A DNA stretch of 43,102 bases, from the sequence record OR352935.1, one strand, 5' to 3'. The stretch is from Escherichia phage AV104. The notes under the pieces were generated by a model that searched no databases, was not told the origin of the DNA, and saw nothing but the letters and a program-made list of their open reading frames with translations. Each line of letters opens with the position of its first letter. Within the stretch, counting starts at the first letter, position 1. Positions 4,305 through 42,590 of this stretch are shown here, piece by piece. The position numbers and the translations under genes were made by a program.

Positions 4305-4308
4305 TAAG

Positions 4309-4336
4309 AGGCCCCATAATGGGGCCTTAGATTTTT
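4309..4336. terminator. bidirectional hairpin terminator between convergent genes
   Basis: AGGCCCC-ATAAT-GGGGCCT stem-loop followed by TAGATTTTT. Confidence 0.55.
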
Positions 4337-4641: not shown

Positions 4642-4680
4642 TTTAGCAAACCTCTATCTTCATTAAACAGCACCAATAAC

Positions 4681-4710
4681 TGAATAGTACCCTATTATAT
4701 CGGGGCATGT
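4681..4710 (-). promoter_or_regulatory. promoter/operator motif (TGAATAGTACCCTATTATA) for gene 4327-4641
   Basis: minus-strand reading gives TATAATAGGGTACTATTCA, the same motif found in front of the early genes. Confidence 0.4.
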
Positions 4711-4778
4711 AAACTATTTATTTACGTATTCCAGTTATTCCCCTCAATTGTAAATGTTGGAATAAACTATTCGAATAG

Positions 4779-4807
4779 TTGACTTTTCACTGAAAATATG
4801 CTAAGCT
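4779..4807 (+). promoter_or_regulatory. sigma70-like promoter (TTGACT-17 bp-TAAGCT with extended TG), copy 1
   Basis: TTGACT at 4779-4784, 17 bp spacer, TGcTAAGCT; near-identical to 35881-35909; preceded by perfect palindrome ACTATTCGAATAGT (4766-4779). Confidence 0.5.
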
Positions 4808-4814
4808 CCACCTG

Positions 4815-4925
4815 AGCTTGTGAAGTATGAACAAGCGACCGCGGCGCGGGCAGGTAACGGAGCGGGACGTAAGTCCTGAGTGTAGTTACGCTGACGCGTT
4901 CGGAAGGGCCATACTCTATTGCTTG
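4815..4925 (+). ncRNA. candidate structured RNA element, copy 1 (paralogue of 35917-36026)
   Basis: about 110 nt conserved between two loci with shared blocks (GCGACCGCGG, GAGTGTAGTT, TTCGGAAGGGCC) and differing but complementary hairpin arms; no ORF longer than 9 codons; downstream terminator at 4988-5016. Confidence 0.3.
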
Positions 4926-4987: not shown

Positions 4988-5016
4988 GCCCCGCTTTATG
5001 GCGGGGCTTTACTTAT
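4988..5016 (+). terminator. rho-independent terminator
   Basis: GCCCCGC-TTTATG-GCGGGGC stem followed by TTTACTT, just upstream of the spanin RBS. Confidence 0.5.
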
Positions 5017-7378: not shown

Positions 7379-7405
7379 GAGAGGGACTTCGGTCCCTCTT
7401 TTCAT
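7379..7405 (+). terminator. rho-independent terminator after capsid gene
   Basis: GAGAGGGAC-TTCG-GTCCCTC stem followed by TTTTCATTT. Confidence 0.65.
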
Positions 7406-11452: not shown

Positions 11453-11478
11453 AAGGCCCCTTTCGGGGCCTTTTTCTT
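11453..11478. terminator. bidirectional rho-independent terminator
   Basis: AAGGCCCC-TTTC-GGGGCCTT flanked by A-tract upstream and T-tract downstream. Confidence 0.65.
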
Positions 11479-13710: not shown

Positions 13711-13735
13711 AATTATTTCCTCAGTAAGTTACATG

Positions 13736-13768
13736 TGAATAGTACCCTATTATATTGGGGTGTGCAAG
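13736..13768 (-). promoter_or_regulatory. promoter of reverse island (TTGCAC-17-TACTAT containing TATAATAGGG motif)
   Basis: minus-strand reads CTTGCACACCCCAATATAATAGGGTACTATTCA, almost identical to the promoters at 36190 and 37632. Confidence 0.45.
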
Positions 13769-21768: not shown

Positions 21769-21780
21769 AGAGGACTCTAT

Positions 21781-23253: not shown

Positions 23254-23263
23254 GACTAAGTAT

Positions 23264-23581
23264 ATGGCTACTATCATTCAAACCAACGGTATCAACATTG
23301 GCTCTAACTGCACGGGTGTTACTATCGTTTCCTGCAGTTTTAAAGGGAATAGTAACGGCGCTGTCGTAGGGTCGGGATGGAATAACGGGGACGGGGTAAA
23401 AGTAAGGACGCTGGCATGTATCGGTGTTGGAGATACGCCAGCGATTTCAAGGGGTACTACAGCGCAACGCCCTTCAGCACCTGTAAGTGGTCAGCAGTAT
23501 TACGATGCGTCCCTGGGGATTCCTATCTGGTGGAACTCAGTTAGTGGCACATGGAAAAACGCAGCAGGTGCTGACGTATAA
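23264..23581 (+). CDS. tail fiber C-terminal module (separate ORF or split continuation of tailspike)
   Basis: 105 aa in a different frame 11 nt after the tailspike stop; beta-helix-like repeats (NCTGVTIVSCSF) and a C-terminal GQQYYDASLGIPIWWN motif reminiscent of tail fiber C-termini. Confidence 0.45.
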   Translation: MATIIQTNGINIGSNCTGVTIVSCSFKGNSNGAVVGSGWNNGDGVKVRTLACIGVGDTPAISRGTTAQRPSAPVSGQQYYDASLGIPIWWNSVSGTWKNAAGADV

Positions 23582-23586
23582 AACTA

Positions 23587-23610
23587 AGGCCCCGAAAGGG
23601 GCCTTTTCTC
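23587..23610. terminator. bidirectional rho-independent terminator
   Basis: AAGGCCCC-GAAA-GGGGCCTT followed by TTCTC; ends both the structural operon and the reverse-strand replication operon. Confidence 0.65.
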
Positions 23611-23747
23611 TACTCGTCTGATAACTTCTCCAGAATAAACGCCAGTTGCGCATTGGCGGCGTCTCTCTGTTGCCGTAGTCTTAGGACTTCCTCTTCGAGT
23701 TCCTTGATACGTTTCTGTAAAGCTGGGATTGGGGCTACGATGTTCAT
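23610..23747 (-). CDS. small coiled-coil protein (45 aa, below cutoff)
   Basis: ATG overlaps upstream stop (ATGA); sequence MNIVAPIPALQKRIKELEEEVLRLRQQRDAANAQL. Confidence 0.3.
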   Translation of the reverse strand: MNIVAPIPALQKRIKELEEEVLRLRQQRDAANAQLAFILEKLSDE

Positions 23748-23929
23748 TTCTTACCATCACTTTTCTTGAAGCTACGTTTTATATCTGGCAGCGTGTAGCA
23801 TCTCGACTTCTCATATTTCCCGTCAGAGCTTACCAAAACAAAGCTGTTGCCGTCGTTTGATATGTACTCAATGGTGAAAGTATTGAACGAATGTACGCTG
23901 TATATTTCATCGCCAACATTAAGTTTCAT
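23744..23929 (-). CDS. hypothetical protein
   Basis: 61 aa ORF coupled to helicase gene. Confidence 0.45.
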   Translation of the reverse strand: MKLNVGDEIYSVHSFNTFTIEYISNDGNSFVLVSSDGKYEKSRCYTLPDIKRSFKKSDGKK

Positions 23930-25383
23930 TTCTTACCTCGTCTCTTCATGTAATTAAGCAACTCTTCCTGTACTGATTTCTTCTCGTCTGTACGCGCGGA
24001 AACAACCTCATCCAGCGTGTCTTTAGCGACGATGTGGTAGAGGAACACCGGGCGCTCGTGCCCCGCCTGCTTCTGTCGCACCGGGCCTATGCGCTCAACA
24101 ACCTGCAAATAGTGCTCAAGGTTCCAGCCTTGCGAAATAAACGCCAGATGATGGCCGCCGTCCTGTAAATTGAGGCCGTGTCCGGCTGACGCGGGATGAA
24201 CGCATAAAATCTCGATTTCACCACGGTTCCACGCTTCCATCTGCTTATTACCCTTAGCACCTTTGGCGAACGCCTGCGCCTGCGGAAAACGTTTCAGGAT
24301 GCGCTCCAGTTCATGCTTGAACTGATAGGCCACCAGTAACGGCGCACCCTGCAACTCTTCCACAATCGACTCAAGCGCGTCCAGTTTCGTGTCGTGCACT
24401 TTCTCCCAGTCTTTGGTTGCTTCCCCGTCTGGCCCCGATACATACACGGCACCGGATGCAATCTGGAGGCACTTCGATGTCTTCGCTGCCGCGTTAGCGG
24501 CCTCAACTTCCCCGCTCTCGAGTTCCGCAAATAACTTTTCCTCCATATCGATGTACGCCTGACGCGCCTTCTTCGGCAGGTCGATTTCAACCGGAACAAT
24601 AATCGGCGCTTCACACCCGAACCACTCAGCGGCGTCAATCGTGAGGCTTATGTCTTTCATCTTCTGGTGAATTTCATTATCCGCGCCCGGGCGTGCGTGG
24701 TACTCTCGCGCCATAGCCGATTTGCCTTTCTGTACCGAGTTAAACCAGCGGTCGGTGAACGCTGTGTATGAAGAACCGAGGCGCTCACCCGCATCTATAA
24801 ACCAGTTCTGCCCCCACAAGTCTTTGAGGCCGTTTGGTGAGGGTGTGCCTGTAAGGTTAATGAAACGCTTAACCTTTCCGAATGCCACCTTACTGAGCGC
24901 CTTTGCTCGCTTGCTTCCACCAGAACGGCTACGGAATGATTTCAGCTTCGTGCTTTCATCTGCGACGATAACGGTAAAAGGCCAGTCGTCTTTGCCGTAG
25001 TAGTCAATCAGCCACTCGATAACTTCGTAGTTCGTACACACTACGTTAGCATCGGACTCAAGCGCCGCGATGCGGCGCTTCTCCGAACCCGTTGCATCGA
25101 CGACACGCAGACACGGGAATCGCCATTTCTCTTGTTCTGCGGGCCATGTGCCGGACGCAACGCGCAGCGGGGCGAGGATTAACACGCGGTCGTCATCATT
25201 AAGCCGACCATTACGTAACAGTCGGTTTAACGCCCACAGTACGCTGCCGGTCTTCCCGGCGCCCATGCTTGCCCATATGTTACAGCGATTGTGCTGCAAC
25301 ATGAACGAGGTCATGAGCTTCTGGTACTCGCGCCTTTGAAACTTAGACATGATTGGCCTCATGAACTGCTTTTGCGAAACCAC
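23926..25383 (-). CDS. SF2 (SNF2/DEAD-like) ATP-dependent helicase
   Basis: 485 aa; Walker A SMGAGKTG, DExx box VIVADESTKL, C-terminal helicase motifs. Confidence 0.8.
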   Translation of the reverse strand: MVSQKQFMRPIMSKFQRREYQKLMTSFMLQHNRCNIWASMGAGKTGSVLWALNRLLRNGRLNDDDRVLILAPLRVASGTWPAEQEKWRFPCLRVVDATGSEKRRIAALESDANVVCTNYEVIEWLIDYYGKDDWPFTVIVADESTKLKSFRSRSGGSKRAKALSKVAFGKVKRFINLTGTPSPNGLKDLWGQNWFIDAGERLGSSYTAFTDRWFNSVQKGKSAMAREYHARPGADNEIHQKMKDISLTIDAAEWFGCEAPIIVPVEIDLPKKARQAYIDMEEKLFAELESGEVEAANAAAKTSKCLQIASGAVYVSGPDGEATKDWEKVHDTKLDALESIVEELQGAPLLVAYQFKHELERILKRFPQAQAFAKGAKGNKQMEAWNRGEIEILCVHPASAGHGLNLQDGGHHLAFISQGWNLEHYLQVVERIGPVRQKQAGHERPVFLYHIVAKDTLDEVVSARTDEKKSVQEELLNYMKRRGKK

Positions 25384-26026
25384 GCGGGGTAAGGCTGCGT
25401 ATTGTTTTTGTCCTCACCGATTTACCGCCTAATTTATTGTGTTGGTCGGAGTACCCATCAACCACGGCGACACATGATTTAACGGGCATCACAAAACCGT
25501 TACCCGCCCAAATACATGTCTTCTTAGGGTACGCGTCCCGCGGTTTTATGTATTCGGGGAACATTGGGTGCGTGTCGTCTTCGGGTAAATAGCCGCCGTA
25601 TTCGTACGGATTGAACGAATAGTCAGGCTTGCGCCATAAAGACGAAAGAACGCTAACCGGGTTCTCAATCATATAAGGTACGTTGTACTTTTTAGCCAGA
25701 CGCGCAGCCACTTTGCATGTAATCACGGCCTCTACCTGAAAAGTTGGATTCTTCTTCCGCTTCGTTTCGAAATGCGCTGCGCCGCTAACAGCTAAATCTG
25801 TGCACGGAGGGAACGCAAAAATAATATCCGGCGCAACCTCGAAGTCGAATTTATTGTCAATCCACGCGTTTATATAGTGGATGTTCTCGTGTTCAACTTT
25901 TGCGCCCAATCGCGCGTAGTCGCCGTGGTCGGCACCGTCGTAGTTGAAACAATAGCAAGTATGGCCCGCTTCCGCCCACGGTTGGGCCATGAGGCCCGAA
26001 CCGTCGAACAATGACCAGATAATCAT
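25343..26026 (-). CDS. compact C5-cytosine methyltransferase-like protein
   Basis: 227 aa; motif I LFDGSG, motif IV FPPCTD, ENP (motif VI-like), C-terminal RSLTPRGFAKA (motif IX/X-like); no room for a large target-recognition domain. Confidence 0.5.
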   Translation of the reverse strand: MIIWSLFDGSGLMAQPWAEAGHTCYCFNYDGADHGDYARLGAKVEHENIHYINAWIDNKFDFEVAPDIIFAFPPCTDLAVSGAAHFETKRKKNPTFQVEAVITCKVAARLAKKYNVPYMIENPVSVLSSLWRKPDYSFNPYEYGGYLPEDDTHPMFPEYIKPRDAYPKKTCIWAGNGFVMPVKSCVAVVDGYSDQHNKLGGKSVRTKTIRSLTPRGFAKAVHEANHV

Positions 26027-26214
26027 TTCGCCACCAGAACTAACTCTTTACGCCCGAACGCCGTAACGTTACCGGTTACGTCTTCGATAACCAGTTTACC
26101 GTTCGACTCTACGTACACCGTATCAACGGCAACAGGGCGACGGGTCTTAACATTGAAAATCATGTCGCCCGGTACGATGTCACGTGCTGGTTTGCGGTCG
26201 TATTCGTGTTTCAT
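26023..26214 (-). CDS. hypothetical protein
   Basis: 63 aa ORF in operon. Confidence 0.4.
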   Translation of the reverse strand: MKHEYDRKPARDIVPGDMIFNVKTRRPVAVDTVYVESNGKLVIEDVTGNVTAFGRKELVLVAK

Positions 26215-26253
26215 TTCTCAATTCCTTATAGTTAAGGCCCCGAAGGGCCTGTA

Positions 26254-26508
26254 TTAGTTAGATAATTCGGCTTGAACTTGCTTAATAAGTTCTCCAGCCG
26301 TTGTGAAGTCTACGGACAGCCGTTTAGCTACGTCTTCCGCAAGCACTTTGCGGCCAACCGACCCGAAACCCAGGATACGGTTTACTTCCGAAACCTTCAT
26401 ATACCATGAGTAATTAACTGATGCCCCTGTGTACTTACAGATTCGAACAGATGAATCGATTGAACCCATAATCATGGTGTTTACTGACAGTTGAAGTTCG
26501 ATAGCCAT
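26254..26508 (-). CDS. hypothetical protein
   Basis: 84 aa ORF in operon. Confidence 0.4.
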   Translation of the reverse strand: MAIELQLSVNTMIMGSIDSSVRICKYTGASVNYSWYMKVSEVNRILGFGSVGRKVLAEDVAKRLSVDFTTAGELIKQVQAELSN

Positions 26509-26509
26509 T

Positions 26510-26824
26510 TTATAATTCCTTATATTGTTGGGGTATGTGCTTACTATAATAGTCTGCTATTAGGGTGTCAATCTGTTTTATCGAACCAACGACAAAAACA
26601 TTCGCGCCACGTTTACGCATCCGCTCGTGCTCGCGTAACTGGTGTGGGTCTGGCTTCGTGCTTTCATCTTTCTTAACCTCAACGAACCAGATGATGCCGC
26701 CGGGGAGGATTACCAACAGGTCGGGCGCTCCGTTTCGGCCCTCATACACTATCTTACGAACGAGGCCCCCCAGGGCCTCGAATCGGTCTTTCGCGTATTT
26801 CTGTACGCGGCCCTCTTTAGTCAT
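26510..26824 (-). CDS. VRR-NUC domain nuclease
   Basis: PD-(D/E)XK-like motif (GAPDLLVILPGGIIWFVEVKK ... HQLREHE); ATG at 26824 coupled to upstream tiny ORF (track start 26839 is TTG). Confidence 0.7.
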   Translation of the reverse strand: MTKEGRVQKYAKDRFEALGGLVRKIVYEGRNGAPDLLVILPGGIIWFVEVKKDESTKPDPHQLREHERMRKRGANVFVVGSIKQIDTLIADYYSKHIPQQYKEL

Positions 26825-26973
26825 GGGCGTAGAACCCAAGTAAGGAAAGCCCCTCCTAGAACGGCAACACCGACAAACTTAAAGAACAGGCCATAACAGA
26901 ACATCGTGGCTATTCCCGCCCCGAGTAACAGTGCAAGCATGGTTACTATTGTCCAAAATACAAACATTGTCAT
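26821..26973 (-). CDS. tiny membrane protein (50 aa)
   Basis: hydrophobic MTMFVFWTIVTMLALLLGAGIATMFCYGLFFKFVGVAVLGGAFLTWVL; ATGA overlaps on both sides. Confidence 0.35.
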   Translation of the reverse strand: MTMFVFWTIVTMLALLLGAGIATMFCYGLFFKFVGVAVLGGAFLTWVLRP

Positions 26974-27059
26974 AATACGCACCCCTCACGTTTCGTGTGC
27001 TCAATCCCGCAGCGCGGACAGATTCGACAGTCTTCTTCATAGAACCAGTAGATTTTCAT
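26970..27059 (-). CDS. tiny Cys-rich peptide (29 aa)
   Basis: MKIYWFYEEDCRICPRCGIEHTKREGCVL with four Cys; ATGA overlaps on both sides. Confidence 0.3.
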   Translation of the reverse strand: MKIYWFYEEDCRICPRCGIEHTKREGCVL

Positions 27060-27187
27060 TCCAGCACCCACAGATAAATTGCGATGAACATACCTAATAC
27101 GGCTACAATCATGCCGTATTGGCCCTCGTGACAGTAGACACCGGCGGCAAATCCCGCCAGTACTGCGATAATCAGTTTACTTAGCAT
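27056..27187 (-). CDS. tiny membrane protein (43 aa)
   Basis: MLSKLIIAVLAGFAAGVYCHEGQYGMIVAVLGMFIAIYLWVLE; ATG lies four codons before the polymerase stop. Confidence 0.35.
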   Translation of the reverse strand: MLSKLIIAVLAGFAAGVYCHEGQYGMIVAVLGMFIAIYLWVLE

Positions 27188-29450
27188 AACGGTACACCTC
27201 TTCCCCAGCCCATGTTAACGGGAACCCTTCGGCCCACTCAGGTAATGAGCATAGCAGGTCACCCATCTCTTTAACCGTGTACTCTGGCGTGTCTGGCGTT
27301 TCGGCAACACATTCGTCATGTACGTGGAGTACAATTGGGTAGCCCGCCGCCTCGACCGTCAGGAGTCCGTTAACCAGTAAATCACGGCACAACGCCTGGA
27401 TGATGTTTTCACACAATTTTCCGCCGTGGGTGTACAAAGTTGTCCACTGGCGGGTGGTCTGATTTTCACCCTGATACTTAATGCGGACGTTAGTAGTAAC
27501 GCGCCCATCCTCGTCAGTCTCTTTAGTGACGCTTAAGCCTATGCCAGGGTAGGACATGATGCGCCCAGACGGCAGTTCCACGCACAACCACCAACCCGGA
27601 ACCGGATTACCGTGGTTGTCTTTTTCTTTGGTACGCCAGATGCGGATGGCTCTGTCGCCGTTAAGGCGTACTCGGGCCCCCGCCCAAAACTCTCGTCCCG
27701 GATTTCTGATGGCGGCTATCACCGAATCCTTAAGGTCATTCCAGAATTTCACTGTTTCCGGATGGGCTTCCCGCCACATGCGCTTAATGGCGTCACAGGT
27801 GCGCCAGACTTCTTTAGGCAGCACATAAGAGGCCCGTTCATCTTTTTTACCAGGCTTTGGCGGGCGTTTAGCCTCCTGAATTCTGGCCCATTCGTAGCCA
27901 CGGGCGGTAGCCGCCCAAATGTGGTCGGGGAACGTGCCCCGCATTGTCTCTGTCATTTTAAAGAGGTCCAGCCCGTAAGTTTTAGCCATAGTCATAAAAG
28001 CCCCTACGCCCCCCTCGTAGCCGAGGCCGAGTTCGCAACATTTCCCGACCTGACGTAGGTCCTTACGGGTGGCTTTTAGTTCTACGGGGTCCATGCCAAA
28101 CATCTTGCCCGCGGTGGCGCAATAAATATCAATCCCTGCGCGGAAGGTCTCAAGCGCGGATGTCTCCCCCGCGGTCCAGGCCAACCCGCGCCCTTCTACG
28201 TTTGAGTAGTCGGCAACGAGCAACTTATTACCCTTTTCAGGGATGATGCAACTGCGAACAGTCGAGGCTGTCAGCTTGGATACGTCGAAACGACGGTGCG
28301 CCCGACCCTTTAGCAGCAGATTGATGCCGAACGATAGGGGGTTGAGACGACGGTTCCAGTCTTCGTCGGACTCCCACGGCTGGCGTACAAGTTTCTTCTC
28401 CTCGTTAGTCGGGTCATCATGATAGTACCCGCGCGACAGGTTCTGCGGCTGGAACCCTTTACCCGCAAATCGTAAAGTGCGCTTTGCCCCACCGTACTGG
28501 ATGCAACCGCGGCGGCGGCCGTCTTTGGACCGTCCTAGCAGGAGCGGTTTGTATTTTGTCGACGCCGTGGAGGCCGCGCCGAGGCGCATCTCAATGATTG
28601 TGCGCGCATCGTCAGGTAAGTCGTCGTCCTCTAGCAAACCTTCGAGCGTTGCTTTCTGCGCATTATAGATATTGTAGGCCGGTGCCAGCTCCCGAAGGAT
28701 TGGCAGGAAGTCTTTACCCGTTAGCTTCCCGCCAAATTTAGCCCTGGCCTCGTTTTTTAGCTCTTGCTTGTGGCGTTCAACTGCTGCTACCGCCGCCTCA
28801 GCAAGAGCCGCATCAACAAAGAAGCCTCGGTCGTTGATTAACTGGTCAAGTTCAAGTACACGGTCCTCGAAATCGGAGTTACCCCAACGTGGCAGCTTAT
28901 GGAAGACTTCACGCATCGCTGTGATGTCGCTCACGGCGTACTTGATGAACAGCGCCCATTCGTCCGGGTGCGTTTCGGCGGTGTAGCGGCGGATTTTATA
29001 GTTCTTCGGGGTTGGTTTGGAGAAACGCTGAATCAGAGCCTTGCCACGTTTATCTTTCGCGTTGTCGGCGGATACGCCCAGCACTTCGCATAATGCGTCA
29101 AGTGAACCCGGCAGCGCGTGGCGAAACGCCCAAATCATAGTGTCAATGGTGTTGCTGACCGGAATATCGAAGCCCCAGCAGTTCTTCATGATGAGCCTAT
29201 CGAAAAGTCCACCGTTATGCCACACCATCTTAATGCGACTGTTTGGCTTCACCAGACGGCGTAACGCGCGGTGTAAATCTCCCGGCATGTCGCTGCCGTC
29301 AGTGCAGTCCCATACCTGAACAGGCTCGTCATCAAAAGCATAGGTGCAGATGAGCACTTCGGTAGTCGGGTGTTCGGCGTAAGCATAGGAGCCGACTTTC
29401 TTCAAATCGGCTTCGGAGAAGGTTTCAAAGTCCAGGTATAAGTAGCTCAT
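27177..29450 (-). CDS. family A DNA polymerase with 3'-5' exonuclease domain
   Basis: 757 aa; ExoI YLDFETFS; motif A DYSNVEGRGLAW; motif B RQVGKCCELGLGYEGG; motif C VLHVHDECV. Confidence 0.9.
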   Translation of the reverse strand: MSYLYLDFETFSEADLKKVGSYAYAEHPTTEVLICTYAFDDEPVQVWDCTDGSDMPGDLHRALRRLVKPNSRIKMVWHNGGLFDRLIMKNCWGFDIPVSNTIDTMIWAFRHALPGSLDALCEVLGVSADNAKDKRGKALIQRFSKPTPKNYKIRRYTAETHPDEWALFIKYAVSDITAMREVFHKLPRWGNSDFEDRVLELDQLINDRGFFVDAALAEAAVAAVERHKQELKNEARAKFGGKLTGKDFLPILRELAPAYNIYNAQKATLEGLLEDDDLPDDARTIIEMRLGAASTASTKYKPLLLGRSKDGRRRGCIQYGGAKRTLRFAGKGFQPQNLSRGYYHDDPTNEEKKLVRQPWESDEDWNRRLNPLSFGINLLLKGRAHRRFDVSKLTASTVRSCIIPEKGNKLLVADYSNVEGRGLAWTAGETSALETFRAGIDIYCATAGKMFGMDPVELKATRKDLRQVGKCCELGLGYEGGVGAFMTMAKTYGLDLFKMTETMRGTFPDHIWAATARGYEWARIQEAKRPPKPGKKDERASYVLPKEVWRTCDAIKRMWREAHPETVKFWNDLKDSVIAAIRNPGREFWAGARVRLNGDRAIRIWRTKEKDNHGNPVPGWWLCVELPSGRIMSYPGIGLSVTKETDEDGRVTTNVRIKYQGENQTTRQWTTLYTHGGKLCENIIQALCRDLLVNGLLTVEAAGYPIVLHVHDECVAETPDTPEYTVKEMGDLLCSLPEWAEGFPLTWAGEEVYRYAK

Positions 29451-29605
29451 TTCTTTTTCCTTAAATCCAGTGCCTTAGTTTCGCTGAGTCTTATTTTCAT
29501 ACAATCACGGCAAATCCACACATGCCTGTACCCGGCACGGTACTCGTCCGCGTACCACGGAAGTGGCTTCATATATCGGTATACGTGCTTACAGAAAAAC
29601 ATCAT
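29447..29605 (-). CDS. small Cys/His-rich protein (52 aa)
   Basis: MMFFCKHVYRYMKPLPWYADEYRAGYRHVWICRDCMKIRLSETKALDLRKKK; stop overlaps the polymerase ATG (ATGA). Confidence 0.35.
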   Translation of the reverse strand: MMFFCKHVYRYMKPLPWYADEYRAGYRHVWICRDCMKIRLSETKALDLRKKK

Positions 29606-29610
29606 TTTCG

Positions 29611-29642
29611 ACCCTTAGTAAAAAGGCCCAATAAAGGGCCTT
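29611..29642 (-). terminator. hairpin / terminator after DUF2815-like gene
   Basis: AAGGCCC-AATAA-AGGGCCTT with T-tract on the minus strand. Confidence 0.45.
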
Positions 29643-29661
29643 AATTAAACAGATTCAGATA

Positions 29662-30294
29662 TTAACCACGGCGACGACGTTCGCGGCGCGGTGCTTCATC
29701 TTCTTCGTCGTCTTCCAGGTCGTCGGTGCTCGCTACTACACTGGAGCCGCCGAAGCGTTTACCTTCGCCCATATACTTGATGCCGAGGATGGTAGCGCAC
29801 AGGTTTTTCCAATCTTTGTGCCACCATAATTCTACAGATACGTTTGCGATACATCCGCTATATACCTGCTCGCCTTCTATTTCTTTCCCGTCGATGTTGA
29901 AATCAGGCTCGGTTTGTTTTTCACCTTTAGCCGATGTCATAATCACCGGTTGGCGGTTGTTTGTAGCGCGGAAATACAGACCTTCTTCAAAATCCTCAAT
30001 CGGATTATCTCGCATTGCCAGGTCACGGACGCAGCATTTGTCTGCGTGGTGGTCTACACCGTAGTTGGCCTTCATCCATTTCTCGGCAGCAGCGGCCCCG
30101 ATTGCATCTGTTACAACTTCCAACGCGGTGTCGTAAAGCGCATCAATTTGAGGATGGTCAGGCTGCATAAGAACAGTAACCTGATACTTACCCTTAATCA
30201 GTTTACCGGTTTTCTTGTCCTCAGAGTCGGCGGCACGTTCAAATACGTTAACCCAGGCAGTGTTTACTTTACGCAGATTCAGTTTAATACCCAT
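29662..30294 (-). CDS. phage replication-associated protein (DUF2815-like, possible ssDNA-binding)
   Basis: 210 aa; acidic and Arg-rich C-terminal tail (DDLEDDEEDEAPRRERRRRG); sits between polymerase and Cas4-like nuclease; family assigned from memory only. Confidence 0.4.
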   Translation of the reverse strand: MGIKLNLRKVNTAWVNVFERAADSEDKKTGKLIKGKYQVTVLMQPDHPQIDALYDTALEVVTDAIGAAAAEKWMKANYGVDHHADKCCVRDLAMRDNPIEDFEEGLYFRATNNRQPVIMTSAKGEKQTEPDFNIDGKEIEGEQVYSGCIANVSVELWWHKDWKNLCATILGIKYMGEGKRFGGSSVVASTDDLEDDEEDEAPRRERRRRG

Positions 30295-30349
30295 CGTGAT
30301 TTCTCGCTTTTAAGTTTACTCCGGGAGCTGCCCGGCCAGTGATTAGAAC

Positions 30350-30368
30350 TATAATAGCTAACTATTCA
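30350..30368. promoter_or_regulatory. promoter/operator motif TATAATAGCTAACTATTCA
   Basis: same quasi-palindromic motif as at the early promoters; lies upstream of gene 29662-30294 (minus). Confidence 0.35.
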
Positions 30369-30595
30369 GAAGTCAAATAAAATTTTGCAATAGTGAGTAT
30401 GTTCTCGAAGTCACGCATGTTAGCAGGTTCAAATTCATCCTCTATAGGTTCGTATCGCATCATCGTACCGTTCAGGAACGTGAACGATTCCGAATGTAGA
30501 TAGCCGTTCCAGCGCCATACCATCACAAAATCTTTATCAGTCGGCATTTCATTTACTTGAATCATTCCAAATCCTCCTCTGTTACTTGATTCCAC
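30362..30595 (-). CDS. hypothetical protein
   Basis: 77 aa ORF. Confidence 0.4.
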   Translation of the reverse strand: MESSNRGGFGMIQVNEMPTDKDFVMVWRWNGYLHSESFTFLNGTMMRYEPIEDEFEPANMRDFENILTIAKFYLTSE

Positions 30596-31818
30596 TCAGG
30601 CCGTTTGTCGTCTGCCGTTGCTACGCATGGCGCGCCTGGCTTACGTGTAATGAAGTCTTTCAGTTCTTCTTCCGGTATTACTTTAACCGCTTCGGTTGGC
30701 GTCATGAGCACTTCTTTAGTCAGCTTGCCGCTGTAGAGTTCTGTTACTTTCTCCGCGTCTTTCCACGTACGATTGCCCATCTTACCTTCAACCAGTTTGT
30801 ACCCCGGCACTTTCTTACCGGAATGCAACGCGGCGGCCATCGCTTTCTCAACCTTGTCGATGTGCTGGCGCAATAGCGGCAACTTCTCATACTCAGCTAC
30901 GAGTTGCTCAGGGGTCAGTTCCAGTGCAAAGTCGTCTTCCAGTTCTTCCGCCAGTGCAGAGTTAACGGTTTTTGTACGCGCGGCGCACTGTTCAGAGAAC
31001 CGGCACCACTGACACCCATCTACCGACGGTCTGAAGTCCGACGCTTTCAGGTTCTTCTTTCCACGGAAATAGGCGTCAAGCGCTAACAATGCACGTTTCT
31101 GCGCGAACTTAGCGAACAGTTCCAGACCTTCAACCGAGATGTCCCACTCGGACGCACCGCCAGCATACGGCTGGAAGATAACAAGACGAACAACTGTGAT
31201 GTTATAACGTCTCCTGAGTCGGCGATAAACACCGAGAGCGTAAAGCATAAGCTGCTTGTTTTCTTTCGCTTCGACACGATGCCGTCCCGTTTTAAGGTCG
31301 CCAATAATGAGCATGTGCTCGTCAGTGTTTGCCAGTTCCTGAACGGCAACAAGGTCGGCGGTGCCGAACGTCTCAATGCCTTCGTAGCCCGGATGCAATA
31401 CCTCAGTAAGATTGACGCGCATTTCCAGCTTGGCGTAAGTCGCTACATCGATAATCGCTTTGCAGTAATCGGTGTACTTGCGCACCTGCTCAATCATATC
31501 CGTCGTAATCAGTACCGCACCTTTCATCGGGCTTATTAGCGCCTTAATCTGGCCTTTACCTTCATCCAGCACGTAAGCACCGACTTCACGCTCTAATGGC
31601 AACGCAGTACCGCGTATATAGGCGTTGAGATGTACCTCAGCTATGGTGTGACACGCGGTCCCTATAACGGCGGATTTACCCGAAGTGTTAGGAATATCTT
31701 TTTCACAGGCCAGTGACGCCGCGCATGACAGCCACTTTTTCGCCCCAGACGGCGACAGTAAGGCGTGCACATCGTTATTGCCACCGCGTTCCTTTAAAAT
31801 CATACCCTGCTCTCCCAC
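30562..31818 (-). CDS. Cas4-like / RecB-family PD-(D/E)XK exonuclease (DUF2800-like)
   Basis: 418 aa; nuclease core (GTADLVA ... IIGDLKTG) and C-terminal Cys cluster CQWCRFSEQC typical of Fe-S Cas4/AddB nucleases. Confidence 0.7.
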   Translation of the reverse strand: MGEQGMILKERGGNNDVHALLSPSGAKKWLSCAASLACEKDIPNTSGKSAVIGTACHTIAEVHLNAYIRGTALPLEREVGAYVLDEGKGQIKALISPMKGAVLITTDMIEQVRKYTDYCKAIIDVATYAKLEMRVNLTEVLHPGYEGIETFGTADLVAVQELANTDEHMLIIGDLKTGRHRVEAKENKQLMLYALGVYRRLRRRYNITVVRLVIFQPYAGGASEWDISVEGLELFAKFAQKRALLALDAYFRGKKNLKASDFRPSVDGCQWCRFSEQCAARTKTVNSALAEELEDDFALELTPEQLVAEYEKLPLLRQHIDKVEKAMAAALHSGKKVPGYKLVEGKMGNRTWKDAEKVTELYSGKLTKEVLMTPTEAVKVIPEEELKDFITRKPGAPCVATADDKRPEWNQVTEEDLE

Positions 31819-32072
31819 TGGTCAATTAAATGTCGTGTCTTATGTTCGCAGTGCATAGCCCACCCATACATCGACTCGAAGACATAAAAGTCAGGTTTGG
31901 CAAATGTCGTGTGCTTAATCTGCGACACGTGACGGCCTATATCTTTAGGCCGCGGTACTTTGCCTAAGTACGCCATCTCTTTCATCTGGTGCGCACCGGA
32001 CGGTGCACGCAACAGCCATAGCGCCTCTGTGTTATCCCGCCTGTCTACAGCGCGGTAGAGTTGGTAAATCAT
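31800..32072 (-). CDS. hypothetical protein
   Basis: 90 aa ORF. Confidence 0.4.
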   Translation of the reverse strand: MIYQLYRAVDRRDNTEALWLLRAPSGAHQMKEMAYLGKVPRPKDIGRHVSQIKHTTFAKPDFYVFESMYGWAMHCEHKTRHLIDQWESRV

Positions 32073-32115
32073 AATTCCGACCCTCAGTTAAAGCGGCCCG
32101 AAGGCCGCGATATAG

Positions 32116-32616
32116 TTATTCTTCTTCGAAATACTTGTTCTTGATTGCTGTCAGGCGTTCCAGGTATTCCGCCAGGTCTTCGTCTTTAATCGCAGCAATC
32201 TTCATTTTCTTACCGGTGAACTCTTCCAGCAGTTCATCAGAATCATCACACGCGGCATCGCTTGGGCCTTCGTTAATCGCATCGTCGATAGCCTGAATCT
32301 GGTCACGCAGAGACTGGTAGTCGACTTCTTGTTTCTCTTCTTCCGGTTCTGGCGTATGTTCCTCTACTTTAGCTTTACGAGGTTTGCGTTTCGGCTTCTC
32401 GTCTTCTGCCGGTTTAGTGTCAACGACGTCTTCACCTTCGACCGGGATTTCTTTTGTTTCTTCTTTGGCGCACTCGGCTACCGCTTCTTTGGTATACACT
32501 ACCTTCTCTACTTCCAGCGGCTCGGCAGCCTGAACAACTTGTTTCGCACTGTTCGCAGCAATCAGTTCATGTGCAACTACGAAACGTTCCAGTAATACTA
32601 AGAATTTCTCTAACAT
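32116..32616 (-). CDS. acidic hypothetical protein, first gene of leftward operon
   Basis: 166 aa, strongly Glu/Asp-rich with a central Lys/Pro basic patch; directly downstream of the divergent early promoter region. Confidence 0.5.
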   Translation of the reverse strand: MLEKFLVLLERFVVAHELIAANSAKQVVQAAEPLEVEKVVYTKEAVAECAKEETKEIPVEGEDVVDTKPAEDEKPKRKPRKAKVEEHTPEPEEEKQEVDYQSLRDQIQAIDDAINEGPSDAACDDSDELLEEFTGKKMKIAAIKDEDLAEYLERLTAIKNKYFEEE

Positions 32617-32648
32617 TATTTATTCTCCTCTCGTTTGGTATGGGTAAC

Positions 32649-32667
32649 TATAATAGCTAACTATTCA
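32649..32667. promoter_or_regulatory. promoter/operator motif TATAATAGCTAACTATTCA in divergent control region
   Basis: quasi-palindrome; on the minus strand followed by leader AAACGAGAGGAG and the ATG of gene 32616. Confidence 0.45.
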
Positions 32668-32694
32668 TTATGTCAATGGGCTTTTCTAAAATAA

Positions 32695-32716
32695 TTAATA
32701 TGGTACTATTCACATA
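32695..32716 (+). promoter_or_regulatory. promoter-like motif (TTAATATGGTACTATTCA) upstream of HTH gene
   Basis: degenerate copy of the early motif 25 nt upstream of the RBS of gene 32741. Confidence 0.35.
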
Positions 32717-32740
32717 TCAACTGACTAAGGAGTAACTGAC

Positions 32741-32956
32741 ATGCAACCATCTGAACTAGGCATCCGTGTAGAACAACGCCGCAAAGAACTAGGCATCTCT
32801 CAGCGCCGTCTGGCGGTTTTGGCTGGCGTTTCCCAGGGCGCGATTAACCAGCTAGCACTTGGAGTAACTCAGGACGTCCGCCCGGCGACGCTGTTTAAAC
32901 TGGCAGAAGTGCTGCAAGTAGACGCCAAGTGGCTGGCGTTTGGTGAAGGGGCTTAA
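32741..32956 (+). CDS. XRE-family HTH transcriptional regulator (Cro-like)
   Basis: 71 aa; LGISQRRLAVLAGVSQGAINQL helix-turn-helix signature. Confidence 0.8.
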   Translation: MQPSELGIRVEQRRKELGISQRRLAVLAGVSQGAINQLALGVTQDVRPATLFKLAEVLQVDAKWLAFGEGA

Positions 32957-32970
32957 CGCCCCTTTCTTTT
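32946..32970 (+). terminator. rho-independent terminator
   Basis: AAGGGGC-TTAAC-GCCCCTT followed by TCTTTTT. Confidence 0.55.
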
Positions 32971-32973
32971 TAC

Positions 32974-35259
32974 CTATTCCAAATCCTCCTCTGTCACTGT
33001 CAGCAGATCATTCGGTTCATATATTGTCTTAGGAATCTTGTTGTCCGTTATCCTGGTGTTCAGCCTGTAGCGGCCAGGGATTATCTGATTGTTTTCGTCG
33101 GTTCCCGGCACAAGATACCCAGCCTCAACCATTTTCTTAATCTTCCCGCGTTCTATGGCTTCTTTGGAGTTAAACGCCTTTGCGTTGGGGTCTGACTGTG
33201 CGAGCTTATTCGCTGCAGCTACCGTGATACCTTCGCTGCCGTTGTAGGTTCCTTCTGCCAGTTCAAACGCTGCCAGTATCGTGGCCTCTGAACTGTTGAC
33301 GGCGTTCTCTACGGTTTTACGTACGTTTTCTTTACCTTCCTTTGTCAGACCTTCTTCACGCTCTTTCTCCTCGTCAGTCTTAAACGGCTCGAAGCCCCAC
33401 GGCATCAGTACAAGTGCCTTATGTGGTTCCGGCAGGTCGAGGTTTACGATTGTGCCGTATTCCTCTGTGTTACCGAGGAACTCAACCGCGCGGTATTCTT
33501 TCGGCGGCGGGGCTTCACGGAACTGTACGGACTCCAGAACCATACCGACAGTTTTCTGTTGGGGGCCGTGCTTAAATTTAGAGTGGTATACGTTTATCTG
33601 ACGGTCGGTAGCACGTTCGATTGTCAGTTCCACGTCGACACCCGCATACAGCGCCCCACTGCCACGGGCTTTCTTTCCGCCTTTCGGCGTATGGTGGACA
33701 ACGCCCACCGCGGCTTTAGTTGCGTCGCGTACTTTTTTAAGGATAGCGATGACTTTACCCATACCGATTGCTGTTGATGAACTATTCTCATCGAACTTAT
33801 CAATCGTCAGTGCCAGCGTCTGGTTGAGGGTATCAAACGCAATCATGCCGATTGGTTCTTCTCCTGCGGTTTCACGCATCATACGGATTAGCGCCGTAAG
33901 TTTTTTATCCTCTCGCATGCCGAGTATTTCTGTCATATCGATGACGTGTACATAATCTTTACCTTCCACGCCGTATTTAGCCGCGAGCGCGTCGATACGT
34001 GTACGTGTGGCTGCGCCACCCTCACCGTCAACATAGAAATGGTGACAACGCTGGGTGTCCGCCCCCGCAAACCGGTACCCGGCGGCGCTGAGGTACATCA
34101 TCCCCAGCGTATAGAAAGATTTGTACGTGCCAGATTCCCCGACAATATCCCAGATGCAATCAGAAGGCATGTACCCTTCTACGACGAAATCAGCCTTTAC
34201 CGGTTCCAGTAACTCGTCCTCCTCTGAGCCATCATCGTCTTCCAGGTCGTCGAGGCTGCATGAGACAGATTCACGCGCGCCCCAGCCGATAGCCTCGGCC
34301 ACTTCACTGAACGGCAACCCGGTCGCATCACACGCGTATTTCCACACCTCTTTCGGTGACATGCCTTCGGTTGCCGTAATGTCGGTGTCGTGAATCATGG
34401 TTACGTTCGGCGCTTCGTAGCCCTCGCGCGGGAAGCACAGCAGGAAGTCATCCGGGCGCGGCGTCGGGTCACTGTAGTTCTCCGCGTGTTCTGGTGTGGC
34501 GGGCATCTTAAGGCCGCGCGGCGTCATGATGCCACCGTACTCAAACGCCAGTGCTTCAAACGCATCCGTAAACGCGGTGCGTAGTTCTTCCGGTATCTGG
34601 TAATCCGATGCACTGCTAACGTCAACGGCTGGTACACCTTCCAGTAACTCTTCCGGGTCAATCAGGTCGTTACGGCGCGACCAGATAACGGTAGAGCCAA
34701 CCGGCGGCAGGTACATCGGTTGCGACAGAGTGAACCCGCTGCGGTCAGCGCCCATACCTTTGAAGAAGTGCTCCAGCAATCCGTGACGAACGCGGATGAT
34801 GTCACCACCTTCAACCGGACGCCCCAGCGGCATGACGACGCGAAAGCGCGGGGACTCATCGGCATGTGATGCTGTGGTGTAGAGGCACATCGCCTGGCGG
34901 CTGCGTTTAACCAGTTGCACCGCTTCCTGATACTCTTCCGTCGTTGCGCTGTCGAAGTCCAGATACGCCAGTGACGATTTGCTTACAGACGCGTCACAGC
35001 GATAGAAGAAGCCTTTACGCGCTTGCTTAAAGTCACCGGTTTCCGGGTCTTTTACGGTGCTGTGCGTCGAGTCGCACGCGGCAGTGATATAGCCCGGTGC
35101 GGTCTTCGGATTAATTCCGTCTCGAACGGCATCGAGCGGCTGGAGTAGCTCTTTCAGGTCGCCCAGTGTCGCCGTGTGTGTTGTTCTGACGTTTATATCC
35201 TTTTTCTCCGCCCGCGCGTTGCGACGTGACCACGAGTAGGATAAAATTACATCGGACAT
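32974..35259 (-). CDS. DNA primase/helicase (RecA-like ATPase domain)
   Basis: 761 aa; Walker A-like GESGTYKS with downstream acidic motifs; large N-terminal domain; position in the replication operon. Confidence 0.6.
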   Translation of the reverse strand: MSDVILSYSWSRRNARAEKKDINVRTTHTATLGDLKELLQPLDAVRDGINPKTAPGYITAACDSTHSTVKDPETGDFKQARKGFFYRCDASVSKSSLAYLDFDSATTEEYQEAVQLVKRSRQAMCLYTTASHADESPRFRVVMPLGRPVEGGDIIRVRHGLLEHFFKGMGADRSGFTLSQPMYLPPVGSTVIWSRRNDLIDPEELLEGVPAVDVSSASDYQIPEELRTAFTDAFEALAFEYGGIMTPRGLKMPATPEHAENYSDPTPRPDDFLLCFPREGYEAPNVTMIHDTDITATEGMSPKEVWKYACDATGLPFSEVAEAIGWGARESVSCSLDDLEDDDGSEEDELLEPVKADFVVEGYMPSDCIWDIVGESGTYKSFYTLGMMYLSAAGYRFAGADTQRCHHFYVDGEGGAATRTRIDALAAKYGVEGKDYVHVIDMTEILGMREDKKLTALIRMMRETAGEEPIGMIAFDTLNQTLALTIDKFDENSSSTAIGMGKVIAILKKVRDATKAAVGVVHHTPKGGKKARGSGALYAGVDVELTIERATDRQINVYHSKFKHGPQQKTVGMVLESVQFREAPPPKEYRAVEFLGNTEEYGTIVNLDLPEPHKALVLMPWGFEPFKTDEEKEREEGLTKEGKENVRKTVENAVNSSEATILAAFELAEGTYNGSEGITVAAANKLAQSDPNAKAFNSKEAIERGKIKKMVEAGYLVPGTDENNQIIPGRYRLNTRITDNKIPKTIYEPNDLLTVTEEDLE

Positions 35260-35815: not shown

Positions 35816-35855
35816 GTAACTTTGTAAAAGCAACCAAAACTGAACACAAAGTTAC
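35816..35855. repeat. 10-bp perfect inverted repeat GTAACTTTGT / ACAAAGTTAC separated by 20 bp
   Basis: read directly; lies between divergent promoters (AlpA-like operon leftward, RNA element rightward). Confidence 0.6.
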
Positions 35856-35880: not shown

Positions 35881-35909
35881 TTGACTTTTACTTAAAAATA
35901 TGCTAAGCT
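35881..35909 (+). promoter_or_regulatory. sigma70-like promoter (TTGACT-17 bp-TAAGCT with extended TG), copy 2
   Basis: near-identical to 4779-4807. Confidence 0.5.
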
Positions 35910-35916
35910 TCACTGA

Positions 35917-36026
35917 GCTTGTGAGATATCGCAAGCGACCGCGGAGCGGCAGGGAACGCAACGCGTGCCATTAGGCACTTGAGTGTAGTTCCGCTGGCGC
36001 TTTCGGAAGGGCCAAAGTCTATTGTT
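35917..36026 (+). ncRNA. candidate structured RNA element, copy 2
   Basis: paralogue of 4815-4925 with compensatory hairpin (GUGCC-AUUA-GGCAC here versus GGGAC-GUAA-GUCCU in copy 1); followed by a large hairpin at 36091-36150. Confidence 0.3.
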
Positions 36027-36090
36027 AATCCCGCCTAAATACCCAAGTCACTGATAATTAAAAGTTTCTATAGTTGCCGTAAGCAAGGTG

Positions 36091-36150
36091 GAGAGTACTT
36101 CACTCCGCTGGGGTGGGCTAACGCCCACCCACTGCGTTGCGTACTCTTTT
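36091..36150 (+). terminator. complex hairpin / possible terminator
   Basis: GGGTGGGC-TAAC-GCCCACCC inner stem, outer GAGAGTAC/GTACTCTT pairing, then TTTT. Confidence 0.35.
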
Positions 36151-36189
36151 AAGAAACGAAAGAATCACAACGGCAACGTAACTTTTCTC

Positions 36190-36218
36190 TTGCACACCCC
36201 AACATAATAGGATACTAT
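36190..36218 (+). promoter_or_regulatory. early promoter (TTGCAC-17-TACTAT, spacer contains CATAATAGG)
   Basis: conserved with 37632-37660 and minus-strand 13736-13768; followed by conserved leader TTATCGAAACGAGA..GAGGAG. Confidence 0.45.
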
Positions 36219-36252
36219 TCACTTATCGAAACGAGACAGAGGAGTGAGGGTT

Positions 36253-37453: not shown

Positions 37454-37624
37454 ATGAAACTGAATGACATCGTAACCTGGACTGGTAGAAACGGAGAAAA
37501 GCGATTCGGGCTTATTGTTGCGCCAGACGGCAACAAGTACCGTGTTATGCGATGGCGTCAGTGGGCACGACGCCCGAGGTACTACTGGATCCGTGGCGAA
37601 CGATTATCTTTAAAACACCAATAA
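37454..37624 (+). CDS. small basic hypothetical protein (56 aa)
   Basis: ATG with AGGAG RBS; Arg/Trp-rich. Confidence 0.4.
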   Translation: MKLNDIVTWTGRNGEKRFGLIVAPDGNKYRVMRWRQWARRPRYYWIRGERLSLKHQ

Positions 37625-37631: not shown

Positions 37632-37660
37632 TTGCACACACAGATATAATAGACTACTAT
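37632..37660 (+). promoter_or_regulatory. early promoter (TTGCAC-17-TACTAT, spacer contains TATAATAG)
   Basis: same architecture and leader (GTTATCGAAACGAGAGGAG) as 36190-36243. Confidence 0.45.
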
Positions 37661-37691
37661 TCAGTTATCGAAACGAGAGGAGAGAGAGAAG

Positions 37692-40311: not shown

Positions 40312-40438
40312 TGGACGAATATGAAGGCGTTTAGTAAACTTATCCCTACGCTGTTTGTGCTTGCATACTAAGCCCCGGTAAACCCGAAGCAGCAGCCCAA
40401 GCGGTGGAGACTGCGTAGGGTTCAGAGGCTTATGGCCG

Positions 40439-40470
40439 AAACCCGGACCGCGAATCCGGGTTTTATTTTA
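40439..40470 (+). terminator. rho-independent terminator
   Basis: ACCCGGA-CCGCGAA-TCCGGGT followed by TTTTATTTT. Confidence 0.6.
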
Positions 40471-40542
40471 CCAATTGACACCTAAGACTAATCCGACGAT
40501 ACTTAAATCACCTCCTGTTCCATCCCTCTGCTCTCCAGTTTT

Positions 40543-40576
40543 ATCCCGGCCCTGACCCAGCCGGGATTTTTTTTTA
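40543..40576 (+). terminator. rho-independent terminator
   Basis: ATCCCGGC-loop-GCCGGGAT followed by TTTTTTTTT. Confidence 0.65.
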
Positions 40577-40597
40577 TCTGTTTTCCACAATGACTAG

Positions 40598-40626
40598 TTG
40601 ACTATTACCATCGACCCTATTATATT
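40598..40626 (+). promoter_or_regulatory. sigma70-like promoter TTGACT-17-TATATT
   Basis: canonical spacing; spacer contains CCCTATTATA motif; followed by leader ...CGACAACGAGAACGGAG and ATG at 40660. Confidence 0.5.
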
Positions 40627-42371: not shown

Positions 42372-42473
42372 GACTACTAATCATCCCCAACGCATGGGCT
42401 ATCGCCGTAGCTAACGACCATTACGGCGGCGATGGTAAAAGAGCACCACGACACGGCCTATATAACTGATACA

Positions 42474-42496
42474 AGCCCTCTACGGAGGGCTTTTCT
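42474..42496 (+). terminator. rho-independent terminator
   Basis: AGCCCTC-TACG-GAGGGCT followed by TTTCTG. Confidence 0.6.
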
Positions 42497-42590
42497 GTAC
42501 ATCCCGCCCAATCCCCTTATATAATCCCTTTAGACGCGTAGGGCGCGTCTGGTGCGCTCTGATGGTCAGACGCATATGCAAGGGGATTCT

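Follow-up and report, generated by a model that had tools for sequence, protein, structure and literature searches.

The genome of Escherichia phage AV104 (OR352935.1) carries, between its leftward replication operon and its rightward early genes, a promoter followed by a structured RNA, a large hairpin and a second promoter, and this order raises the question of what an RNA placed in such a way could do for the transcripts that begin with it. A preliminary description of this DNA, which took the RNA to be the second copy of a cassette, had considered either a regulated read-through or antitermination switch, or a small RNA made at high level at the onset of infection. The whole stretch of 43,102 nt (hereafter, the window) was analyzed; at 43.1 kb it represents a full Kagunavirus-type siphophage genome (subfamily Guernseyvirinae), and around copy 2 it shares 92–94% identity with the Escherichia phages phiEc4, phiEc3, and several 'Kagunavirus' records. 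The element represents an RNA family that is new and confined to Guernseyvirinae, and we propose, with a probability of roughly 0.4, that it acts in cis as a 5′ leader and renders RNA polymerase resistant to terminators, about half of this probability falling to an RNA that works autonomously and half to one that needs an added factor.

The repeated RNA, its promoter and its functional strand

The repeat was recovered with BLAST (35881–36024 against 4779–4921, 80% identity over 147 nt, E 5e−28) as well as with a covariance model (R1) that was trained on copy-1-like sequences only, copy 2 being excluded. The model gave exactly two matches in the window, at 4811–4924 (140 bits) and 35912–36027 (94.8 bits, E 1e−23), and the second copy is therefore real. 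Relatives were IMG/VR contigs reached via the neighbouring spanin gene (47 loci) and helix-turn-helix (HTH) gene (37 loci), and they included diverged versions of the RNA, namely a Jerseyvirus form with 55–57% identity and three Kagunavirus forms (A, B, and C) from the early slot, i.e., the interval that holds copy 2 and is bounded by the HTH gene and the first early promoter. A plain MAFFT alignment combined with RNAalifold already recovered the basal helices with compensatory changes; at one pair, for instance, U-A is present in 11, C-G in 9, and A-U in 3 sequences. In a model-guided alignment (32 sequences, 30 distinct), which was fitted to the model and is hence biased towards it, 97.2% of the base-pair cells hold standard pairs versus 31–48% when the partners are shifted by 1–3 columns, changes on both sides (compensatory) occur in 16 of the 27 pairs, and the observed covariation was reached by none of 500 shuffles. 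Because the unfitted alignment and the shifted controls agree, the conclusion on structure is robust, and the comparison supports a genuine structured RNA with four helices: a 5′ hairpin (P1) and a long stem (P2a, P2b, and the P2c cap) with an internal loop, followed by a conserved tail (Table 1). The corresponding GC-rich segment of copy 2 (35917–36030) has a predicted fold of −49.6 kcal/mol (z = −4.0). P2a contains two invariant G-U pairs whose counterparts on the opposite strand would be A-C, which excludes that strand and leaves the + strand transcript as the functional molecule.

The promoter in front of the RNA is supported by comparison, beyond a consensus match alone. Across 63 homologous sequences the spacer always measures 17 nt, the TG of the extended −10 is invariant and followed by C, A, G or T, and the hexamers are conserved across 21 distinct spacer sequences (TTGACT/TAAGCT in Kagunavirus, TAGACT/TACGCT in Jerseyvirus). 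In the same relatives P1 begins 4–6 nt past the end of the −10 hexamer, within about 5 nt of the predicted start, and thus sits at the very 5′ end of the transcript. For copy 2 the start is predicted at ~35916/35917, which fits the start at 35917 given in the preliminary description; the promoter escaped a simple consensus scanner, as only 3 of the 6 positions of its −10 hexamer match.

Copy 1, conserved in both Kagunavirus and Jerseyvirus, carries the sole detectable + strand promoter from the terminator at 4308–4328 to the spanin start codon, so that the late mRNA must begin with this RNA as its 5′ leader. Upstream of the −35 hexamer of this copy (4735–4779) lie an inverted repeat, TTATTCC-N17-GGAATAA (kept in Jerseyvirus as TTATTCC...GGAATAC), and a palindrome, CTATTCGAATAG, and these motifs suggest that the late-operon promoter may itself be controlled by a DNA-binding protein. 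Copy 2 runs into a linker with short motifs common to all cassette types and to copy 1, and then into a hairpin module (H1) with a predicted fold of −32.5 kcal/mol (z = −4.6), a stability equalled by none of 200 shuffles. The large hairpin ending in TTTT and the early promoter at 36190 beyond it were both correctly placed in the preliminary description. H1 is terminator-like with a short U tract, 4 of the 8 bases that follow it being T.

Protein coding was rejected as an explanation of the conservation, since neither copy is crossed by an open reading frame (ORF) of at least 50 aa and close variants differ by one-nucleotide insertions or deletions, which would frameshift any reading frame. A 'hypothetical protein' annotated over the leader in phage Jersey (gp08, L327 7265–7456) and likewise in several GenBank Kagunavirus records is probably a spurious ORF call. 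The tail (window 36011–36060; 4908–4925) holds a Shine-Dalgarno-like GGAAGG (GGGAGG in some type-B cassettes) with a conserved TTG 11 nt further on, which opens a mini-ORF of 1–18 codons and reads TTG-TAA, a start directly followed by a stop, in types B and C. A leader peptide from this TTG is improbable, as its sequence is not conserved and the TTG is lost in one contig (L051). Two further motifs were considered and dropped, an RfaH ops-like TAGCGT that occurs in Jerseyvirus only, and a −10-like sequence in the P1 loop (as for sigma-dependent pausing) that occurs in Kagunavirus copy 1 only.

Occurrence and exchange of the leaders

BLAST located the element in 180 phage records, all of them Guernseyvirinae of Escherichia, Salmonella, Raoultella, and Shigella, and mostly with a single copy. 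When 2.9 million viral contigs were scanned with the invariant skeleton and filtered with the covariance model, only Guernseyvirinae-sized genomes were left, and in 100,044 prokaryotic species, each represented by one genome, the same scan and filter left two true matches, both on short mis-binned phage contigs. One is a 6.2-kb contig in a 'Bacillota bacterium' metagenome-assembled genome (L221) that represents a fragment of a Kagunavirus with a type-B cassette, the other a 738-bp scaffold of Taishania pollutisoli (L225) that represents a Jerseyvirus fragment; contamination or mis-binning, not a true host, is probably the source of both. Nothing similar was present in 5,426 E. coli genomes, and mimicry of a host RNA was rejected on this ground. 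Searches of the whole window against Rfam 15 yielded no matches at gathering thresholds and, when relaxed, only sub-threshold chance hits outside the element, while ARAGORN predicted neither tRNA nor tmRNA. No description of the RNA was found in a full-text literature search, and the sole Kagunavirus transcriptome paper found reports at gene level only.

The late-operon copy was detected in all 45 contigs, Kagunavirus-type and Jerseyvirus-type alike, that allowed an examination of the region ahead of the spanin gene, and it is the only copy of phage Jersey. It is ancestral and apparently universal, copy 2 being a later acquisition. The early slot, by comparison, is polymorphic: 17 of 32 Kagunavirus contigs hold the element there (A in 9, B in 6, and C in 2), 14 hold unrelated leaders (D in 2 and E in 12), and one truncated contig was left unclassified. 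The preliminary description was thus right about this genome, both in assigning copy 2 to the early control region and in the divergent setting of leftward replication genes and small early genes running rightward from 36253, but the assignment does not extend to a fixed feature of the group, as the slot is occupied by the element in about half of the Kagunavirus contigs. The early slot of phage Jersey holds a type-E-like leader, and type E is therefore probably the ancestral occupant that copy 2 later replaced.

The type-E leader (~175 nt plus tail) lies behind a TTGACA-17-TAAGGT/TAAGTT promoter in phage Jersey (L327 38840–39060) and in ~40% of the Kagunavirus contigs (L067–L078, reverse strand upstream of the HTH gene). 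It contains long-range complementary segments (CTTAG/CTAAG and GTTAC/GTAAC) and a swappable apical domain, and its end, GGGC(A/G)AGCT(C/A)TATTC, resembles the tail of the element, the tail variant CTCTATT or CTATATT following the genus in both leader types. In some type-E variants (L069, L070, L076, L077) the apical domain, GAAACGCAGC-cap hairpin-GAAGTGTTAAGC, folds like P2b–P2c (GTAACGGAGC-cap-GAGTGTAGTTAC; window 4850–4893 and 35949–35996), and the shared arrangement of stem, asymmetric purine-rich loop and cap may be a portable functional module. Type-B cassettes (L051, L055, L056, L059, L063, L064, L221) have a (CTCA)n stretch of ~3 to 7 units between the leader and a GGTGCC-TTCG-GCACC hairpin, upstream of the early promoter, which may be a length-variable, slippage-prone tract.

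The order within every cassette is fixed (promoter, structured leader, hairpin module, GAATCACAACGGCAACG block, early promoter), and leaders and hairpin modules show independent assortment: H1 is found behind A, C, and E, H2 behind D and E, and H3 behind B. Since H1 follows A, C, and the unrelated E, and H2 follows two leaders, a coupled switch made of this RNA and H1 is unlikely; the anatomy given in the preliminary description, and its idea of control during elongation, do fit. The same assortment bears on a riboswitch or attenuator, i.e., a sensor of a metabolite, ion, temperature or protein that would decide if the following hairpin terminates. Such a device would agree with the classical order of promoter, structured RNA, hairpin with U's and gene, and with the conservation of unpaired nucleotides in the internal loop and tail. 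However, one hairpin module stands behind unrelated leaders and one RNA type is combined with different hairpins, so that a conserved alternative pairing is impossible; moreover, 50–65 nt of poorly conserved linker separate the RNA from the hairpin, the Jerseyvirus hairpin is nearly devoid of a U tract, and no Rfam riboswitch matches. We therefore regard a sensor as very improbable.

The two copies of a genome are 78–88% identical and never identical (15 of 15 two-copy genomes), and variants move between slots, the late-operon copy of one contig (L002) being an early-slot type C. In some relatives the leader forms a conservation island (96–99% identity versus 70–88% in the flanking coding sequences). 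Islands of this kind can mark recombination joints, and palindromes adjoin both promoters, which would suit a feature acting at the DNA level (an operator array, a replication origin or a recombination linker between mosaic modules) with an incidental RNA fold. Compensatory changes in all four helices, among them the G-U pairs that the other strand would turn into A-C mismatches, are strand-specific and indicate selection on a single-stranded + strand molecule instead, and in two close relatives (L002, L026) the leader is the most diverged segment and yet keeps its structure. An explanation by DNA alone is thus hardly credible.

Proposed processive antitermination and its alternatives

Any effect of the RNA on polymerase is something we infer from its position, conservation and exchange. 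According to the proposed mechanism, the leader would be transcribed from the strong host-type sigma-70 extended −10 promoter and would fold, as it is made, into the 5′ hairpin and the long three-part stem with its conserved purine-rich internal loop. It would then act on the polymerase that made it, alone or with a factor, and the modified polymerase would read past the following hairpin and later terminators (processive antitermination), an action like that of put in phage HK022 by an unrelated RNA. Copy 1 would serve the late operon (spanin, scaffold, capsid, and tail), in which terminator-like sites are found right after the leader (4988–5007), after the major head gene (7379–7400, a good terminator) and at the end (11453–11472). 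Copy 2, upstream of a leaderless early promoter, would add a second class of rightward transcripts that pass the terminators near 40.4–40.6, 42.5, and 2.7 kb and reach the genes for lysis and packaging; a relaxed scan of the + strand past copy 2 returned H1, 40438–64, 40543–67 (T8), 42473–92, ~2741–56, and 4308–28.

A cis-acting leader that alters elongation is favoured because the RNA is made first, is conserved in structure, is indifferent to the hairpin behind it, is interchangeable with another leader, and heads long rightward operons. Independent assortment of RNA and hairpin is expected if the mechanism does not depend on the terminator sequence, and leaders would be functionally interchangeable, since the element replaces type E in the early slot and its variants swap slots. 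Among 20 small proteins, no Q, N, RNA-binding or other antiterminator Pfam family was detected, and the lack of a recognizable Q- or N-type antiterminator protein was counted in favour of an antitermination leader. An arginine-rich early protein of 56 aa (37454–37624) is found in ~23 Escherichia-phage records versus > 100 that carry the element, a distribution too sparse for an obligate N-like partner, and this candidate was rejected.

By arrangement, the closest known system is put of HK022, in which two similar, non-identical copies (putL and putR) lie after promoters and before terminators and no phage protein is needed (PMC9378689). The element resembles it in having two similar, non-identical copies per genome, each opening a long operon just behind a host-type promoter, with terminators further on, in the two stem-loop domains with bulges and internal loops, and in belonging to a phage with no recognizable dedicated antiterminator protein. 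Membership in the put family nevertheless fails on homology, as the R1 model found no match in the HK022 immunity region (20000–33500, including PL-putL and PR-cro-putR) even at E ≤ 10. There are other differences: put comprises ~70 nt and two stem-loops, and the element is longer (~90–110 nt), P1 and P2a–c spanning ~90 nt and being followed by a conserved 20-nt tail; put belongs to lambdoid phages and the element to virulent Guernseyvirinae, where its ancestral copy heads the late structural operon and not an early one and where most relatives bearing it have one copy only. Put acts on intrinsic and Rho-dependent terminators alike with no added factor, and mutations in the β′ zinc-binding domain of RNA polymerase block this activity; binding to that domain and antitermination would be putative properties of the element.

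Other systems are more distant. The nut sites of phage lambda (boxA and boxB, with N and Nus factors) are likewise RNA sites in two copies near the starts of two operons and within the very transcript that they would control, but the element has no boxB-like conserved loop, the loops of P1 and of the cap vary freely, and no N-like protein was found, the arginine-rich early protein being absent from most carriers. The tail sequence CTCTATT matches boxA (GCTCTTTA) weakly, and worse in Jerseyvirus; as it is not conserved across the variants, a boxA-like function was dropped. The lambda PR′-6S leader-tR′ arrangement, on which Q acts, is similar to copy 1 in its constitutive-looking promoter, ~200-nt untranslated leader, and terminator-like hairpin with lysis and structural genes behind it. 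However, Q works via DNA and a sigma-dependent pause and not via a conserved RNA fold, whereas here selection is on RNA structure, and no Q homologue was found. The eps-associated RNA (EAR) and the leaders of rRNA operons are also cis-acting leaders that aid read-through of distal terminators in long operons; they are different RNAs from different hosts, and the element matches neither EAR nor any other Rfam family.

Because an independent promoter follows copy 2, the idea of an early small RNA remains for this copy, which could be a stand-alone gene acting in trans early in infection, either as an RNA of ~235 nt ending at H1 or as one of ~105 nt after cleavage at the AU-rich tail. Its targets could be, e.g., host or phage mRNAs, or it could serve as a decoy against host defence. 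Copy 2 does have its own strong promoter, a stable TTTT-ended hairpin and an independent early promoter right behind it, its slot is polymorphic and accepts at least five alternative cassettes, much as accessory or anti-defence loci do, and its tail motif CU(A/C)UAUU behind a GC-rich domain resembles what we take to be an RNase E-type site. On the other hand, the copy that is ancestral and apparently universal forms the leader of an mRNA, and no separate promoter serves the operon that follows; as copy 1 leads the late operon in this manner, a cis-acting leader is favoured over a pure small-RNA gene. The short U tracts of the hairpins (4 T in the 8 bases after H1) are atypical of efficient small-RNA terminators, the conserved parts are structural (covarying stems and internal loop) and include no long single-stranded seed, and the E. 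coli genomes offered no similar sequence that would hint at mimicry of a host RNA. We hold a small-RNA gene to be rather unlikely, although it deserves to be taken seriously. The interpretation in the preliminary description is thus partly supported: it lies in the right area, with no choice made among its alternatives.

The 5′ hairpin and the compact fold could also merely protect the transcript and leave polymerase unaffected, or cleavage in the linker could leave the hairpin as a protective mRNA 5′ end or as the 3′ end of the leader. In all variants P1 lies only a few nucleotides from where the transcript is predicted to begin, which would suit this, as would the stable hairpin behind copy 1, which lies ~25 nt 5′ of the ribosome-binding site whether or not it has a U tract; in addition, large irregular hairpins like H1 resemble, as we presume, the RNase III sites of T7-type early regions. 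Plain protection, however, needs neither a 70-nt three-part stem nor a conserved asymmetric internal loop and an invariant tail, and it leaves unexplained why a second copy precedes a promoter already equipped with a conserved 5′ untranslated region (UTR) of its own. A role limited to processing or stability therefore seems decidedly unlikely.

Several points weigh against an antitermination leader as well. Apart from the missing homology with put, the U tracts behind the leader hairpins are short or poor, and nearly absent in Jerseyvirus (e.g., TTAGCGTA), so the conserved feature may be a stable hairpin and not a terminator. Every rightward unit past copy 2 has a promoter-like site of its own, and read-through is therefore not strictly required; the element is also dispensable at the early slot, because half of the Kagunaviruses and phage Jersey lack it there. 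Finally, a constitutive antiterminator before the late genes gives no temporal control by itself. A bolder version of antitermination would hold that the element founds a new class of RNA-only processive antiterminators, unrelated to put, that reprogram enterobacterial RNA polymerase with no phage protein and in which the portable stem, loop and cap are the active part. Guernseyvirinae would then run all their long rightward operons via interchangeable leader RNAs, a similar module apparently also being grafted into type E. We consider this version unlikely.

Genomic setting and significance

The coordinates of the leader copies and of the surrounding features are collected in Table 1.

Table 1 Features of the two leader copies and their surroundings in the window
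Feature	Position	Strand	Description and basis
Terminase, portal, and head morphogenesis genes	1–4304	+	PHROG annotation
Terminator	4308–4328	bidirectional	upstream of the copy-1 promoter
Copy-1 promoter	4779–4807	+	TTGACT, 17-nt spacer, TGcTAAGCT
Copy 1 of the leader RNA	4811–4924	+	5′ leader of the late structural operon; covariance model
Terminator-like hairpin	4988–5007	+	GCCCCGC-TTTATG-GCGGGGC, then TTTACTTA; 25 nt 5′ of the spanin start codon (5032)
Late structural operon	from 5032	+	Rz-like spanin, scaffold, major head protein etc. to tail proteins; PHROG
Replication genes	~23.6–35.8 kb	−	helicase-primase, polymerase, others; PHROG
Inverted repeat	35816–35855		perfect, 10 bp, GTAACTTTGT-N20-ACAAAGTTAC; flanked by the 5′ end of the leftward HTH gene and by the copy-2 promoter
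Copy-2 promoter, sigma-70	35881–35886 (−35), 35901–35909 (extended −10)	+	TTGACT, 17-nt spacer, TGcTAAGCT
Copy 2 of the leader RNA	35912–36027	+	covariance-model match, fold, covariation
P1	35917–35923 × 35930–35936	+	5′-terminal hairpin, loop variable
P2a	35939–35948 × 35998–36006	+	stem part
P2b	35950–35957 × 35988–35996	+	stem part with bulged G
Internal loop	35958–35965, 35979–35987	+	purine-rich, asymmetric; 5′ strand AACGGAGC, 3′ strand GAGUGUAG
P2c	35966–35970 × 35974–35978	+	cap hairpin; stem and loop vary freely
Tail	36007–36027	+	conserved, single-stranded; AAGGGCC...TCTATTG, in the family UUCGGAAGGGCC...CU(A/C)UAUUG
Linker	36028–36089	+	short motifs AAGTCACTGAT, GTTTCTAT, TTGCCGTAAG; read directly from the sequences
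Hairpin module H1	36090–36150	+	long, interrupted; top GGGTGGGC-TAAC-GCCCACCC, end GTACTCTTTT
Conserved block	36162–36178	+	GAATCACAACGGCAACG; upstream of the early promoter in every cassette type
First early promoter and 5′ UTR	36190–36252	+	TTGCAC-17-TACTAT (36190–36218), conserved 5′ UTR CACTTATCGAAACGAGA, ribosome-binding site
Small early genes	from 36253	+	PHROG
Holins, endolysin, further small genes, terminase gene	39275 (holins), 39826 (endolysin), wrapping to the window start	rightward	PHROG
Hairpins, then promoters	40438–40464, 40543–40567; 40475, 40598		second hairpin with T8 tract; TTGACA-17-GATACT (40475), TTGACT-17-TATATT (40598)
Hairpin, then promoter	42473–42492; 42496		TGTACA-18-TATAAT (42496)

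The inverted repeat upstream of the copy-2 promoter was found in cassette types A, B, and C and is a candidate operator. Beyond the cassette, the first early gene starts with an ATG at 36253 and its product matches phrog_12538. Its promoter belongs to a repeated early-promoter family, with TTGCAC-17-TACTAT at 36190 (+), 37632 (+), and 13767 (−); the near-identical sites extend over 36190–36236, 37632–37678, and 13721–13767 (−), with others at ~4676–4712 (−) and ~32696–32718. These promoters hold an internal inverted repeat, AATAG-N4-CTATT, that looks like an operator for early shut-off, and the conserved 5′ UTR lies behind both + strand copies (36190 and 37632) and is absent from the − strand copy at 13767. 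The genome paper of fBC-Eco01 labels the same motif 'phage RNA polymerase promoter', although phages of this group encode no RNA polymerase. Further to the right, pairs of terminators and promoters (40438–40626; 42473–42525) divide the rightward region into separate units.

Guernseyvirinae such as Kagunavirus and Jerseyvirus are among the most often isolated phages of E. coli and Salmonella that are proposed for therapy, and in databases the element carries either no annotation or a spurious 'hypothetical protein'. Should the RNA turn out to modify RNA polymerase, put would be its single precedent among phages, and E. coli engineering would gain a compact, portable read-through element; as a small RNA or a processing signal, it would still merit deposition as a new RNA family. 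As an RNA the element has good support, and its position suits a regulatory role; in phages with neither an RNA polymerase of their own nor a recognizable antiterminator, the covarying late-operon leader, duplicated at the early region in some of them, is an obvious place to look for the control of gene timing.

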